From the UHGV virus genome UHGV-0045952: a DNA stretch of 16,743 nucleotides; one strand, 5' to 3'. Below, one piece after another: positions 9,621-14,573 of this stretch (position 1 is the stretch's first letter; the number at the start of each line of letters is the position of its first letter). Both the position numbers and the translations under genes were made by a program. Origin of the DNA: a virus. The notes under the pieces were generated by a model, which worked only from the letters and a program-made list of their open reading frames with translations, was not told the origin of the DNA and did not search any database.

Positions 9621-9788
9621 ATGACCATCTACATCACTGAGCTAATAGCAGGGTTATCGTTACTAATGGTTCTTACTGTATATATTATTAAGTATATTCT
9701 TTATGCGAATAAAAAAAACCAATTGATCACGATGAGCTTCTGTCAACATTATCATATGACTCAGAAACAGGAATATTTAAATGGCTAA
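9621..9788 (+). CDS. Small hydrophobic ORF, 55 aa
   Basis: ATG at 9621 directly after the primase-helicase stop, GGAG 6 nt upstream; hydrophobic N-terminus MTIYITELIAGLSLLMVLTVYIIKYIL; runs through the A8 tract into the disrupted HNH gene in another frame. May be a remnant. Confidence 0.25.
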   Translation: MTIYITELIAGLSLLMVLTVYIIKYILYANKKNQLITMSFCQHYHMTQKQEYLNG

Positions 9789-10315
9789 AAACAAATTCAG
9801 TAGTAAGAGTAAAAGGTAGTATTGCTGGAGGTGTTAGTGGTGGTTATATATGCATTAGCATAAATAATGTTTTGTATTATGCGCATAGGCTTGCTTGGTT
9901 CTATGTATACAAAAAATGGCCTCCTAAGTTTATTGATCATGTAAATGGGAACAGACTTGACAATAGGATTTCAAATCTAAGACTGGCAACAGAGGAGCAG
10001 AATGCAAGAAACATTGTAGGTAATAGGTTAAACACATCCGGTGCGATTGGAGTGTCTTGGGATAAGACAACTGGCAGGTGGAAGTCTTATGTTGGTTATA
10101 AAAATAAGACAATATCGTTAGGGTATTTCGATAGCAAAGAAGATGCAGCATTCATAGCAGCACTAGCAAGAAAGAAACTATATGGAACTTATGCGAGTAA
10201 AGCACTTAATTGCGAGCATGAGCTTTTATCTCAATTTAATAATGATGAGGATAAACTTGCGGAATATCTTAAGGAAAAATCTAAAAGGACTCGAAAGCGT
10301 GTTAAAAAAAGATAA
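9703..10315 (+). pseudogene. HNH-AP2 homing-endonuclease-like gene, copy 1, with an apparent +1 homopolymer frameshift near the start
   Basis: Track ORF 9872..10315 has a TTG as first codon and carries the HNH motif (AHRLAWFYVYKKWPPKFIDHVNGNRLDNRISNLR) and an AP2-like segment. The frame stays open back to 9713 with homology to the N-termini of copies 2 and 3 but has no ATG. An ATG at 9703 is out of frame by one base across the A8 run at 9711..9718; with A7 it would read MRIKKPIDHDELLSTLSYD... Confidence 0.5.
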
Positions 10316-10347
10316 AGGCCTGCTGGTAATCGCAGGCCTTTTTATTT
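10316..10347 (+). terminator. Rho-independent terminator
   Basis: Stem AGGCCTGC (10316..10323) / GCAGGCCT (10332..10339), 8-nt loop, then TTTTATTT. Confidence 0.6.
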
Positions 10348-10362
10348 GGGGGAGAGTAAATC

Positions 10363-10569
10363 GTGGCTGAGTTTATGCTCGTCGCACTCAAATGCGTTGG
10401 CGTTGGATGGATTCTTCTGACGTTTTTTATTGTTCTGCATAGCTACATTCGTCTTGTGAATGACGGTAAAGACCCATGGTATACGTTGTTTGGCGCTGCA
10501 TTTGTCTGGGTGATTATCGGTGTTATGCCTGTCGCTGTAGCAAAAATGGCGTGGCGTTTTGTTAGTTGA
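10363..10569 (+). CDS. Small membrane protein with two hydrophobic segments
   Basis: 68 aa; GTG start at 10363 with GGGGAGAG about 7 nt upstream; hydrophobic stretches VGVGWILLTFFIVL and FGAAFVWVIIGVMPVAVA. Confidence 0.45.
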   Translation: MAEFMLVALKCVGVGWILLTFFIVLHSYIRLVNDGKDPWYTLFGAAFVWVIIGVMPVAVAKMAWRFVS

Positions 10570-10576
10570 GGTAACG

Positions 10577-11023
10577 ATGAAGCCAATATACATGCTTCGC
10601 AACGAAGCAATCAGAAACAACGCCATAGACGCAATACTCTCACTTCCGATCGACGACAAGTCACCTCACGAAGTCCACATTAAAGAACCAAAGCGGAGCA
10701 ATCCTCAAAACCGCCTTATGTGGGCGTTATTGCAGGACGTATCGCGTCAGGTGCTCTGGCATGGAGAGAGACTTGCGCCGGAGGACTGGAAAGATCTGTT
10801 CACTGCCCTGTGGCTTAAGACCAAAAAACTGGAGCAACGAAGTGCGCCTGGTATCGACGGTGGCGTTGTTATGCTTGGCGTGCGTACCAGCAAAATGCGA
10901 AAGGCCAGCATGACTGAGCTTATCGAAATCATGTTCTGGTTCGGCTCAGAGCGCAACGTGCGGTGGAGTGATGACTCCCGGCGAGAGTATGAATGGTCAC
11001 AACGAACAGGGAGGGCGGCATGA
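10577..11023 (+). CDS. ninB: NinB-like recombination protein
   Basis: Track ORF 10559..11023 trimmed to the ATG at 10577 (GAGGT upstream). Segments such as [23 protein letters not shown] and the C-terminus parallel lambda NinB as I recall it. Confidence 0.8.
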
Positions 11024-11202
11024 GGCGACAGCGACGAAGTTTCACCGACATAATCTGTGAAAACTGCAATTACCTTCCAACGAAACGTTCCAGAAATAAA
11101 CCCAGGCCAATCCCAAAAGAATCTGACGTTAAAACCTTCAATTACACGGCTCACCTGTGGGATATCCGGTGGCTAAGACATCGTGCGAGGAAAACAAGGT
11201 GA
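11020..11202 (+). CDS. ninE: NinE-like protein
   Basis: Track ORF 10993..11202 trimmed to the ATG at 11020 (GGGAGGG upstream, ATGA overlap with the ninB stop); 60 aa [27 protein letters not shown]...; NinE identity from memory and position. Confidence 0.55.
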
Positions 11203-11369
11203 TTGACCAAAATCGAAGTTACGAACAAGAAAGCGTCGAGCGAGCTTTAACGTGCGCTAACTGCGGTCAGAAGCTGCATGTGCTGGAAGTTCACGTGTGT
11301 GAGCTCTGCTGTGCAGAACTGATGAGCGATCCGAATAGCTCAATGTACGAGGAAGAAGACGATGGCTAA
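11199..11369 (+). CDS. ninF: NinF-like protein
   Basis: Track ORF 11157..11369 trimmed to the GTG at 11199 (GTGA overlap with the ninE stop); [34 protein letters not shown]...EEEDDG parallels lambda NinF as I recall it. Confidence 0.55.
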
Positions 11370-12505: not shown

Positions 12506-12708
12506 CGTTCTCAGTAAAAACCATTCCAGACATGCTCGTTGAAGCATACGGAAACCAGACAGAAGTAGCACGCAGACTGAAATGTAGTCGCGGTACGGTC
12601 AGAAAATACGTTGATGATAAAGACGGGAAAATGCACGCCATCGTCAACGACGTTCTCATGGTTCATCGCGGATGGAGTGAAAGAGATGCGCTATTACGAA
12701 AGAATTGA
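12502..12708 (+). CDS. ninH: NinH-like protein
   Basis: 68 aa; ATGA overlap with the ninG stop; position and size fit lambda NinH. Confidence 0.7.
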
Positions 12709-13357
12709 TGGCAGCAAATACCGAAATATTTGGGTAGTTGGCGATCTGCACGGATGCTACACGAACCTGATGAAAAAACTGGAGACGATAGGATTCGACA
12801 CCAAAAAAGACCTGCTTATCTCGGTTGGCGATTTGGTCGATCGCGGTACAGAGAACGTCGAATGCCTGGAATTAATCACATTCCCCTGGTTCAGAGCTGT
12901 ACGTGGAAACCATGAGCAAATGATGATTGATGGCTTATCAGAGCGCGGAAACGTCAATCACTGGATGCTTAATGGCGGTGGCTGGTTCTTTAATCTCGAT
13001 TACGACAAAGAAATTCTGGCTAAAGCTCTTGCCCATAAAGCAGATGAACTTCCGTTAATCATCGAACTGGTGAGCAAAGATAAAAAATATGTCATCTGCC
13101 ACGCCGATTATCCTTGTGACGAATACGAGTTTGGAAAGCCAGTTGATCATCAGCAGGTAATCTGGAACCGAGAACGAATCAGCAACTCACAAGACGGGAT
13201 CGTGAAAGAAATTAAAGGCGCGGACACGTTCATCTTTGGTCATACGCCAGCAGTGAAACCGCTCAAATTTGCCAACCAGATGTATATCGATACCGGCGCA
13301 GTGTTCTGCGGAAAGCTCACATTGATTCAGGTACAGGGAGAAGGCGCGTGGGCATAA
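12686..13357 (+). CDS. ninI: NinI-like Ser/Thr protein phosphatase (lambda PPase family)
   Basis: Track ORF 12611..13357 trimmed to the ATG at 12686 (GGAGTGAAAGAG upstream). Metallophosphatase motifs GDLHG, GDLVDRG and GNHE are present. Confidence 0.85.
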
Positions 13358-13866
13358 GAGAACTAAACCTCACCAAAGAACAGCATGATTGGCTGAATGG
13401 CTGGCTTGAACTGTGGGGTGCATGGGTTTATTCAGGCCGCCTGGAAAAGCGCATGAGCAGCGTAATAGCGAAGTTCATGGAGAGCGTAGAGCCGGGAAGA
13501 GTTATGACAAGGCCAATGTGTAATGATGATGATGGAATGTTGATTTCTCAGGTCGTCGATTCCGTCATGTACATTGACAAGAAAGCCTTTGGCATCCTCC
13601 TCAGCTACTACGCTCATGGTTCATCTAAGCGAGCAATTGCATCCTACTATCACGCGACTGCAAAGCCACGCAAAATGTGTGGACGTGGTGGCGAGGGATG
13701 GAGAAAACCTTCAATGGCAACCTGTAGAAACGAAATTGACGACATCCTGAAAGCGTCGTTATTTGTTTTGTACCAGCCAATGCAAAATGCTTTCAAAATG
13801 CGTAAACGTGTTGAGAAAGTTAAGCATGTTGCTGTTAAAAGTCTTGACATGCAATTAGCCATTTAG
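13348..13866 (+). CDS. Q: Late-gene antiterminator Q (933W / 21-like family)
   Basis: 172 aa; GTG start with GGGAGAAGG upstream; motifs WLELWGAW and [12 protein letters not shown] resemble the Q family of 933W-type phages as I recall it; candidate PR' and tR' lie at and after its 3' end. Confidence 0.65.
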
Positions 13867-13873
13867 CCATAAT
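13844..13873 (+). promoter_or_regulatory. Candidate late promoter PR'
   Basis: -35 TTGACA (13844..13849), 18-nt spacer, -10 CATAAT (13868..13873), at the end of the Q gene. Confidence 0.45.
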
Positions 13874-13913
13874 ATTCACATATGCTGCTGCTTTTGCATT
13901 CAGCAACCATCAC

Positions 13914-13939
13914 AAGCCCACCTCCTGTGGGCTTTTTTG
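13914..13939 (+). terminator. tR'-like intrinsic terminator
   Basis: Stem AGCCCAC (13915..13921) / GTGGGCT (13927..13933), loop CTCCT, then a run of six T. Confidence 0.55.
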
Positions 13940-14060
13940 CATTCGCGTGCAATCAAAACAAGAGTCTTAGTGATATGGGCCTGAGATATGGTGGTGGAAA
14001 CATCGCTCCGCTCTTGGCTGTCATATCTACGCGAACAGGCTCTATCCCTAAGGTAAAGCG

Positions 14061-14573
14061 ATGAAAGAAATAAAATTAACGCCAGAAATGGTGCTTTCTG
14101 TTGTTGATTACAATCCATCATCAGGCGACTTTCACTGGAGATGGAGGCAGGGGAGAGAGAGGACCACTTTGACATGGAACTCTCGTTTTGCTTTCAAGAA
14201 ATGCTCATCAATAAATTCTGATGGGTATTTAATGATTATGATTAATGGTAAAGCATGCCCTGCTCACAGACTGGCATGGTTGATTGTTTATGGCACCATG
14301 CCCGATGGTTTTATTGATCACATCAACAGGGTAAGAACAGATAACCGGATATCAAATCTTCGTCTTGTCACTCATTCCGAAAATATGCAAAACAGGAAAA
14401 TTCAGAAGAATAATAAATCTGGATACCGTGGCGTGTCTTGGGATGCTAAGTACGGGAAATGGAGAGCAAGAATTAATGCGTCTGGAAAGTGTATTAACCT
14501 TGGATACCATGACACTGCCGAACTTGCCGCTGCGGCTTTTGAGGCAGCCAGAATGAAATATCATACCGTTTAA
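14061..14573 (+). CDS. HNH-AP2 homing-endonuclease-like gene, copy 3
   Basis: 170 aa; HNH motif AHRLAWLIVYGTMPDGFIDHINRVRTDNRISNLR and AP2-like segment SGYRGVSWDAKYGKWRARINASGKCINLGYHDTAELAA; AAGG upstream of the ATG; lies between tR' and the lysis genes. Confidence 0.8.
   Translation: MKEIKLTPEMVLSVVDYNPSSGDFHWRWRQGRERTTLTWNSRFAFKKCSSINSDGYLMIMINGKACPAHRLAWLIVYGTMPDGFIDHINRVRTDNRISNLRLVTHSENMQNRKIQKNNKSGYRGVSWDAKYGKWRARINASGKCINLGYHDTAELAAAAFEAARMKYHTV

Follow-up and report, generated by a model that had tools for sequence, protein, structure and literature searches.

Three HNH-AP2 genes in a lambdoid prophage of Escherichia coli: probable free-standing homing endonuclease genes, one fused to the start of ninG and one frameshifted

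How does a single lambdoid prophage come to carry three HNH endonuclease genes at three separate sites between its replication and lysis genes, and what are these genes to the phage that carries them? The question is raised by the virus genome UHGV-0045952, a stretch of 16,743 nucleotides (hereafter the window) whose positions 9300-14900 match the chromosome of E. coli MS 196-1 (NZ_CP146681.1) with 100% identity and lie there within a lambdoid prophage. The initial annotation of the window, made from the sequence alone, described the three genes as diverged HNH-AP2 paralogs and considered them an unusual load for one element. The feature is real and was right in kind; it is also publicly annotated already and comes from a well-described family. 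We consider it likely that the three genes (HNH1, HNH2 and HNH3) are free-standing homing endonuclease genes (HEGs) of the phage HNH(HNN)-AP2 family that were acquired independently, each on its own cassette of 0.6-0.7 kb and low guanine-plus-cytosine (GC) content. We hold this view because of their architecture, motifs and fold, the precision of the junctions, the foreign composition of the cassettes, the high identity of the cassettes across diverged backgrounds and the decay of one copy by frameshift; nuclease activity, target sites and homing are what we infer from these features.

The three proteins share one architecture, as had been proposed. Each matches the Pfam profile HNH_3 (PF13392) above its cut-off of 24.8 bits, with 57.9 bits for HNH1 (after correction of its frame), 42.7 bits for HNH2 and 65.3 bits for HNH3, and all three match the family phrog_99 (“HNH endonuclease”) with an E-value of about 1e-71. 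Their C-terminal segments match the AP2 profile (PF00847; cut-off 33.3 bits) with 32.6 bits (E=1e-7), 22.2 bits (E=2e-4) and 35.1 bits, respectively, and a PDB sequence search with HNH3 returned the AP2 domain of WRI1 (E=2e-6). Pairwise alignment gives mutual identities of 34-41% (34% and 41% to HNH1). Among the motifs listed initially, G-x-F-x-W, IDH..N..R.DNR..NLR and GV.W...W are invariant, but H-x-L-x-W reads HVLVF in HNH2 and G-x-F reads GYH in HNH3. None of the catalytic motifs IDH, NLR and (E/Q)N varies among the three proteins, and when 15 homologs are added (18 sequences in all) residues D88, H89, N101, L102, R103 and N110 (HNH2 numbering) remain invariant. The catalytic columns align with the DH..N..N motif of I-HmuI, and the predicted catalytic residues are the histidine of IDH, the asparagine of NLR and the third asparagine, in (E/Q)N.

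An AlphaFold2 model of HNH2 built from the 18 sequences has a mean predicted local distance difference test score (pLDDT) of 84.4. In a Foldseek search its N-terminal half has I-HmuI (1u3e) as the best PDB match (probability 1.00, E=0.01, 99 aligned columns), and its C-terminal part matches AP2 domains, namely the GCC-box domain of AtERF1 (root-mean-square deviation 1.3 Å over 51 columns) and those of WRI1 and TEM1, with a three-stranded sheet (strands 127-130, 135-142 and 145-152) followed by a C-terminal helix (155-173). Each protein is thus predicted to open with a beta-sheet region, to continue with an I-HmuI-like His-Me finger and to close with an AP2 DNA-binding domain, the arrangement seen in the model of HNH2.

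Comparison of the flanks with HNH-free relatives reveals that all three genes lie on insertions, with empty alleles for every site, and that their positions had been correctly read: HNH1 follows the Toprim/DnaB-like helicase gene, HNH2 lies at the 5′ end of ninG and HNH3 lies between Q and the holin gene (Table 1). The same backbone occurs without any cassette in strain 22AR0322 (NZ_CP195467.1, 1558537-1563718), with HNH3 only in DETEC-E601 and with all three genes in MS 196-1; 22AR0322 and DETEC-E601 share the Toprim helicase module, an identical WP_000807329.1 neighbor gene and an identical NinH. Across our population sample of 5,426 complete E. coli genomes, HNH1 is found at 138 places in 126 genomes (95-100% identity), HNH2 at 564 places in 538 genomes (530 of them at ≥99% identity) and HNH3 at 43 places in 40 genomes (all at ≥99%). 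With the flanking phage sequences present in about 2,000-2,900 of these genomes, each HNH gene is a minority allele. Each also occurs alone, HNH3 in phage HK629 and, in the stretches examined, HNH2 in the O157:H7 strain TW14359 and HNH1 in strain W284.

Deposited records already annotate these genes as HNH endonucleases (HK629 gp62, SH2026Stx1 gp29 for HNH1 and gp38 for HNH2, RefSeq WP_001108086.1 and WP_000658763.1), and mention neither the fusion to ninG nor the frameshift mechanism described below. HK629 gp62 is 99.4% identical to HNH3 and occupies the same position after Q; phage SH2026Stx1, with 95.3% DNA identity to the window over 9621-12684, has HNH genes of 612 nt and 567 nt at the positions of HNH1 and HNH2. 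The genes are free-standing in that each has its own stop codon, with no sign of a transposon and no intron: over the whole window Rfam matched only the lambda cIII thermoregulator, and neither an intron nor another RNA family near the cassettes. The AT-richness noted at the outset is likewise evident, with a GC content of 34.0% in cassette 1, 38.5% in the HNH2 body and 43.0% in cassette 3 (29-43% when the rewritten ninG segment is included) against 47-50% in the flanks.

Table 1. Features of the three HNH sites and of the surrounding prophage (window coordinates; empty cells, not given).
Feature	Position	Strand	Description	Basis
Cassette 1	9653..10318		666-bp insertion (665 bp in intact copies), GC 34%	Empty versus occupied allele
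Small ORF split by cassette 1	9621..9788	+		Comparison with empty allele
HNH1	9703..10315	+	Frameshifted HNH_3+AP2 endonuclease pseudogene	
Intrinsic-terminator-like hairpin and T-run	10314..10351	+	Immediately 3′ of cassette 1	Terminator scan
HNH2 leader	11362..11390	+	Original ninG start and codons 1-9 (MAKPARRRC)	Overlaps ninF stop as ninG does in empty alleles
HNH2	11362..11928	+	Intact 188-aa HNH_3+AP2 endonuclease gene, in-frame fusion to ninG start	
Cassette 2	11391..11986		596 bp in place of 66 bp of ninG (empty-allele codons 10-31)	Alignment, codon comparison
NinG (200 aa), restarted in cassette 2	11903..12505	+		Pfam NinG, comparison with empty allele
Sigma-70-like promoter TTGACA-18-CATAAT	13844..13873	+	11/12 matches, best in region	Promoter scan
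Cassette 3	13874..14578		705 bp replacing 7 bp (TAGAAGA) of empty allele, GC 43%	Alignment by eye
Terminator-like hairpin and U-run within cassette 3	13914..13940 (hairpin 13914-13934)	+	Called tR′ initially	Terminator scan
HNH3	14061..14573	+	Intact 170-aa HNH_3+AP2 endonuclease gene	Both Pfam scores above cut-off
Second terminator-like hairpin and U-run	14580..14625 (hairpin 14580-14618)	+	Fold -20.2 kcal/mol, z=-3.7	
cI-like repressor	5153-5860	-		Pfam and RefSeq annotation
O-like replication protein	6772-7632			Pfam and RefSeq annotation
Toprim/DnaB-like primase-helicase	7740-9620			Pfam and RefSeq annotation
Q antiterminator	13348-13866			Pfam and RefSeq annotation
Holin	14948-15163		Followed by lysozyme	Pfam and RefSeq annotation

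The boundaries of cassette 1 were set by ungapped split-point analysis and are ambiguous by 5 bp (9648/9653 to 10313/10318), with microhomology of 3-5 bp (CAGG/AAGG) at the flanks; those of cassettes 2 and 3 were read by eye from alignments that contain small indels. In the empty allele of site 1 (strain 2018-01-1CC) the stop codon of the helicase gene is followed by an 84-nt open reading frame (ORF; L002, at about 972-1055) that runs through the terminator hairpin and reads ATGACCATCTACATCACTGAGCTAATAACAGG up to the insertion point of cassette 1 and CCTGCTGGTAATCGCAGGCC... beyond it. Its hydrophobic 27-aa product, MTIYITELITGLLVIAGLFIWGRVNRG, matches phrog_5907 (E=1.3e-18). In the window the first ~10-13 codons (MTIYITELI..) of the small ORF are those of this 27-aa ORF and the remainder is derived from the cassette, giving a hybrid of 55 aa here, owing to the frameshift described below, and of 34 aa with a different hydrophobic tail in intact copies; the hybrid matches phrog_5907 at positions 1-13 only, and the 34-aa form is annotated as gp28 in phage SH2026Stx1. 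A Shine-Dalgarno sequence stands upstream of the phrog_5907 ORF, whose parts in the window are 9621-9704 and 10316-10370, in two different helicase contexts. The ORF may be either a real micro-protein that cassette 1 has “repaired” or a by-product of the hairpin sequence. The hairpin itself (fold -17.6 kcal/mol, z=-3.0) resembles the lambda tR2 region, and in a large share of the 1,982 E. coli genomes with a match the 45-bp terminator module is all that matches. In W284 and in the Stx1 phage SH2026Stx1 cassette 1 stands behind another helicase gene, one of the DnaB type.

Although this went unnoticed at first, HNH1 lacks a single reading frame across its 613 nt. Translation from the ATG at 9703 passes a run of eight adenines (A8, 9711-9718) and meets a stop codon at 9724-9726, and the parts encoding the HNH and AP2 domains are otherwise intact in the frame 9713..10315, which has no usable upstream start. 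The intact 612-nt homolog of strain W284 has seven adenines (A7) at the run; 12 of the 13 other HNH1 copies listed have 616 bases against the 617 of the query and are annotated as single HNH endonucleases, and the thirteenth (NZ_LR882978.1), cut short at its 5′ end, is annotated as two fragments. With A8 in place of A7, HNH1 of the window is therefore a frameshifted pseudogene, and RefSeq lists the MS 196-1 copy as a pseudo fragment and an 87-aa “AP2 domain-containing protein” ORF (10052..10315). A sequencing error is an unlikely source of the extra base if the window and the finished chromosome are independent, since both carry A8.

At site 2 the term “inside ninG” proves literally true, as HNH2 uses the ninG start codon and the first nine ninG codons. 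Identity with the empty allele (O121 strain FWSEC0006) runs through ATGGCTAAACCAGCGCGAAGACGATGTAA, which comprises ninG codons 1-9 and two bases, the last shared stretch before the HNH2 body diverges from the empty ninG allele being ...CGATGTAA, and it resumes at TGTGGAACCAAG (11987). Between these points cassette 2 carries the HNH2 body and a rewritten N-terminus for NinG with a Shine-Dalgarno sequence (AAGGAG, 11892-11897) ahead of it. The ninG ATG is the sole in-frame start of HNH2; homologs of HNH2 lack the MAKPARRRC extension, and residues 2-11 of the model have pLDDT <50 and are predicted to be disordered. NinG is restarted within the cassette, where its codons 1-28 (11903-11986) substitute for residues 1-31 of the empty allele with a GC content of 28.6% against 48.4%. 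In the substitute each of the four cysteines of the empty allele has an aligned counterpart, EWF, P and NQ.W are likewise kept, and the remainder of NinG is ordinary (Pfam NinG positions 5-192 of 193, E=6e-85).

The rewritten ninG segment is present in 538 genomes at 564 places (517 genomes at ≥99% identity), and these totals, identical to those of the HNH2 body, point to strict linkage; among the listed carriers every rewritten segment is accompanied by HNH2. Among 50,697 phage records four carry the rewritten segment, none has an allele of 80-99% identity and other NinG proteins reach at most 67%. In the O157:H7 strain TW14359 1,005 nt of HNH2 plus ninG are 97.8% identical to the window, against 99.0% in other O157:H7 strains over the HNH2 body alone, which by arithmetic places the flank near 96.5%. 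Cassettes better conserved than the sequence around them would be in keeping with super-Mendelian inheritance and co-conversion of flanks in mixed infections. The literature searched holds nothing on a ninG fusion with a cassette-borne substitute N-terminus; this arrangement is probably undescribed and a variation on known HEG behavior. Two further observations concern ninG and its place. The cassette-free ninG of DETEC-E601 (L013, 2355-2966) is annotated as a pseudogene with an internal stop codon, and ninG is therefore able to decay without an HNH insertion. HK629 has a second, short “HNH endonuclease” gene, gp58 (L007, 5737-6027; HK97 gp66-like), which lies beside rusA at the place that ninG occupies here.

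At site 3, identity with the empty allele of strain elppa10 runs to CCATAAT (13873) and resumes at TAAGCTGCCGTTAG (14579). Cassette 3 comprises HNH3 preceded by a leader and a terminator-like hairpin, and its end lies 5 nt past the HNH3 stop codon. It starts one base after the -10 hexamer of a sigma-70-like promoter that overlaps the stop codon of Q (13864-13866) and is present in the elppa10 empty allele as well. This promoter is a candidate for the late promoter PR′; the annotators of HK629 put their putative PR′ elsewhere, at the equivalent of ~14026-14031, inside cassette 3 and about 35 bp upstream of the HNH gene. The hairpin within the cassette (fold -12.5 kcal/mol, z=-3.7) corresponds in position to an annotated rho-independent terminator of HK629, and the second hairpin is shared with the empty allele, standing directly after the promoter in elppa10 and after HNH3 here. 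It may also be observed that the same -10 hexamer precedes two different leaders, with and without cassette 3, which bears on Q loading. The segment 14579-14897, common to cassette-free relatives, has a tRNA T-arm-like sequence, GGTTCGATTCC, at 14806, and TUM1880 and other relatives have tRNA-Asn and tRNA-Thr genes at the equivalent position (L008, 8383-8538); ARAGORN finds no tRNA genes in the window, and the segment therefore probably holds decayed tRNA remnants.

If the three genes are HEGs, their spread may be pictured as follows. When the prophage is induced, or replicates beside a related lambdoid phage that lacks a cassette, the enzyme would bind a conserved sequence at or near the empty site; there are three candidate targets, the module of small ORF and terminator that follows the helicase gene, the 5′ end of ninG with its Cys-rich coding sequence and the leader downstream of the post-Q promoter. 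It would then nick or cut the target, and recombinational repair from the cassette-bearing genome would copy the cassette in along with adjacent markers. The carrier itself would escape cutting, its own copy of the target being split at sites 1 and 3 and rewritten at site 2. At site 2 the incoming HNH2 would take the ninG start codon and the coupling to ninF, and NinG would be re-initiated, with its substitute N-terminus, from a ribosome-binding site borne by the cassette. Each cassette occupies a stretch that lambdoid phages, mosaic elsewhere, have in common, and HEGs prefer targets of this kind; a +1 A slip in a homopolymer, such as has inactivated HNH1, is the decay expected of a HEG once empty sites are exhausted.

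The part of ninG that cassette 2 displaces is precisely the part that it supplies in rewritten form, as would be expected if the recognition site lay there and the carrier had to be immune yet keep NinG. We therefore put forward, tentatively and with rather less than even confidence, that cassette 2 is a self-contained “cut-and-rebuild” homing module, which takes the ninG start and ninF coupling, targets the Cys-rich-coding 5′ end of ninG and brings a cleavage-immune, functional replacement with its own ribosome-binding site. With such a replacement end and ribosome-binding site, cassette 2 could enter a coding sequence with neither an intron nor an intein and still leave the phage its NinG. 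The phrog_5907 ORF may be treated in the same way by cassette 1, and under this proposal the HEGs would mark the few islands of sequence that mosaic lambdoid phages share and help drive exchange there.

Several points weigh against regarding the genes as HEGs. In the literature searched we found no measurement of cleavage or homing for any lambdoid HNH-AP2 protein, and HNH1 as it stands here is unable to yield a full-length protein. The AP2 scores of HNH2 (22.2 bits) and HNH1 (32.6 bits) fall below the Pfam cut-off, that of HNH3 alone reaching it, and the Foldseek E-values are modest (0.01-0.08), though with probabilities of 1.00. An HNH-free donor allele of the rewritten NinG N-terminus was not found among the E. 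coli genomes and the 50,697 phage records. Cassettes 2 and 3 carry more than a HEG (the rewritten ninG end in the one, a leader and terminator in the other) and are therefore not simple insertions of a bare gene. Finally, the presence and absence of the cassettes could also be explained by ordinary exchange of lambdoid modules without any nuclease-driven spread.

Among the rival explanations the one that survives best, though we consider it unlikely, is that the genes have been domesticated for the phage as weapons against co-resident lambdoid prophages (marker exclusion), as helpers of recombination in the nin region or as AP2-based DNA-binding regulators. HNH2 has stayed uniform, being ≥99% identical in 530 of its 538 genomes, and has the recombination genes ninB and ninG for neighbors; HNH3 comes straight after the candidate late promoter, so that its expression would be timed with late transcription. 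For a role in regulation there are precedents in the CasPRs of other prophages, in which AP2 domains have been co-opted as repressors (bioRxiv 10.64898/2026.02.23.707548), and in CapR-type domains derived from HEGs (PMC10448857), and the frameshift of HNH1 has left an AP2-only ORF, that of 87 aa. However, the majority of related prophages lack each gene, the catalytic motifs are intact, as one would expect of nucleases and not of proteins that only bind DNA, and PADLOC gave no more than weak “homing endonuclease” hits and a single, marginal match to ZorE (E=0.0074, 14 bits). Competition between phages is moreover the HEGs’ own mode of spread, so that domestication largely overlaps the HEG explanation. 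As to a defense system, PADLOC gave nothing convincing for any defense family, and we reject that reading.

That the three genes are paralogs which arose by duplication and divergence inside the prophage lineage, as a lineage-specific expansion, is very improbable. They do have one architecture, belong to one PHROG family and are 34-41% identical to each other, but HNH genes of unrelated phages are at least as close to them: HNH3 shares 44-45% identity with those of Xanthomonas and Felix-O1-like phages, and the nearest relatives of HNH2 outside its own clusters of ≥89% identity reach 44-47%. One of the latter has readable neighbors (P0004) and these are T7-like; a second contig with an HNH2 relative has no NinG annotation. 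Each cassette is found alone in other prophages or phages and the cassettes differ in GC content (34%, 38% and 43%). Duplication within the element, implied when the genes were first called paralogs, is thus unsupported, and independent acquisition is the better reading of these comparisons. Least credible of all is that the genes are conserved core genes deleted from the “empty” relatives, or were carried in by a transposon or insertion sequence: junctions alone cannot separate insertion from precise deletion, and cassette 1 does have its microhomology, but the empty alleles are the large majority and have intact frames (a full ninG and the 27-aa phrog_5907 ORF), the cassettes are foreign to their flanks in composition, and terminal inverted repeats, target duplications of 4 bp or more and a transposase are absent from every cassette.

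With independently acquired HEGs as the preferred explanation, the number of them in one prophage can be reconsidered. The load is not the unusual one that it had been thought to be: at least three HNH genes are present in the prophages of TUM1880 and Br_190_kylling, and six to eight in Xanthomonas phages. The TUM1880 prophage has an HNH gene just upstream of ninB (L008, 3330-3824), HNH2 and an HNH3-like gene, and the Br_190_kylling prophage has HNH1, an HNH gene between ninB and a dam methylase gene (L009, 2900-3427) and HNH2. The sites in these sibling prophages indicate that at least five sites between the replication and lysis genes can be occupied, in varying combinations, in the genomes examined. 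TUM1880 has in addition a pseudo HNH fragment that adjoins an ISVsa5 insertion. A tblastn search with HNH3 matched 6,252 places in 3,768 phage records, with up to five places per genome. The exact trio of HNH1, HNH2 and HNH3 is found in MS 196-1 alone among the complete E. coli genomes. Rough frequencies per lambdoid place are 138/2911 for HNH1, 564/4689 for HNH2 and 43/3875 for HNH3, and their product, ~6e-5, leads one to expect a few tenths of a triple carrier among ~4,300 prophage places if the three are independent; set against this expectation, the one carrier observed is unremarkable, and the trio looks combinatorial.

The importance of these observations is limited. They indicate that temperate lambdoid phages, including Shiga toxin (Stx)-converting phages and prophages of pathogenic E. 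coli, carry selfish HNH-AP2 genes of the type found in lytic phages. For annotation, one frameshifted copy is flagged, and in hundreds of E. coli genomes the “HNH endonuclease” that precedes NinG begins at the ninG start codon, so that the NinG proteins there have a replaced N-terminus. If the enzymes are active, their targets would be useful natural tools, and they would also offer a concrete contribution, open to test, to the mosaic exchange between lambdoid and Stx phages.

The rest of the window has the make-up of a lambdoid prophage. After the helicase gene come, by Pfam and RefSeq annotation, the genes for NinB, NinE, NinF, NinG, NinH, the NinI phosphatase and the Q antiterminator. As the window ends in the lysis genes without a terminase gene, and the architecture of the HNH proteins includes AP2, a terminase-associated HNH protein of the HK97 gp74 type was rejected. 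The match to the lambda cIII thermoregulator lies at 2416-2474 on the minus strand (88.5 bits; gathering score 50). Directly downstream of the cI-like repressor gene, and on the same strand (minus), an ORF of 332 aa (4033-5031) lies where lambda has rexAB; it has no match in Pfam or PADLOC and is a candidate for an exclusion or defense gene expressed in the lysogen. Runs of N at 3908-3997 (90 bases) and 15554-15563 (10 bases) suggest that the window may derive from a gapped draft assembly other than the finished MS 196-1 chromosome.

Among known systems, the HNN-AP2 genes of Xanthomonas phages are of the same kind. The phages Xop411, Xp10 and OP1 have eight, seven and six free-standing HNH genes, many of them of the HNN-AP2 type, dispersed and often degenerate (Lee et al., 2007, PMC2248197), and the family, first described by Magnani et al. 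(2004, as cited in PMC2248197), has been interpreted as HEGs whose copies first spread through a genome and later degenerate (PMC2248197). Its members, like the proteins described here, have an HNN-type His-Me finger with HRLAW, WP, DNR, NLR and EN boxes and no Cys dyads, followed by a C-terminal AP2 domain; there too several diverged copies are dispersed over one genome and degenerate by frameshift and truncation, and the Xop411 region annotated p42.1 and p43 is 44% identical to HNH3. The Xanthomonas phages are lytic, however, whereas the present carrier is a temperate lambdoid prophage of E. coli, in which the insertion sites are precise to the base against many empty alleles and one copy is fused to the start of a phage gene. 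The IPA-HNH HEGs of the Vibrio phage ICP1 (Barth, Dunham and Seed, 2023, PMC10448857) likewise combine an HNH domain with a C-terminal AP2 domain and lie near conserved genes and boundaries of genetic exchange, and one HNH/AP2 pair among them, gp115-gp116, is reported to be frameshifted, but their domains are too diverged for the HNH_3 profile, which all three proteins here match.

I-HmuI, the intron-encoded nicking HNH enzyme of Bacillus phage SPO1 (PDB 1U3E), shares with them the N-terminal beta-sheet and the beta-beta-alpha-metal core with its DH...N...N residues; it differs in residing in a group I intron, and in ending in a helix-turn-helix rather than AP2, and the sequence identity is only 18%. 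Intronless homing and gene splitting are known from the free-standing HEGs SegF, SegG and MobE of T4-like phages, and an insertion of mobE splits nrdA in the Aeromonas phage Aeh1. As at the sites described here, those HEGs stand in or beside a conserved gene, and the carrier allele differs around the site; flanking markers are co-converted, as they would be here under the proposed homing. They are, however, of the GIY-YIG type or HNH enzymes with a zinc finger. Nor is NinG split into two functional pieces: its first 31 codons have been swapped for a 28-codon substitute, and the HEG takes its start.

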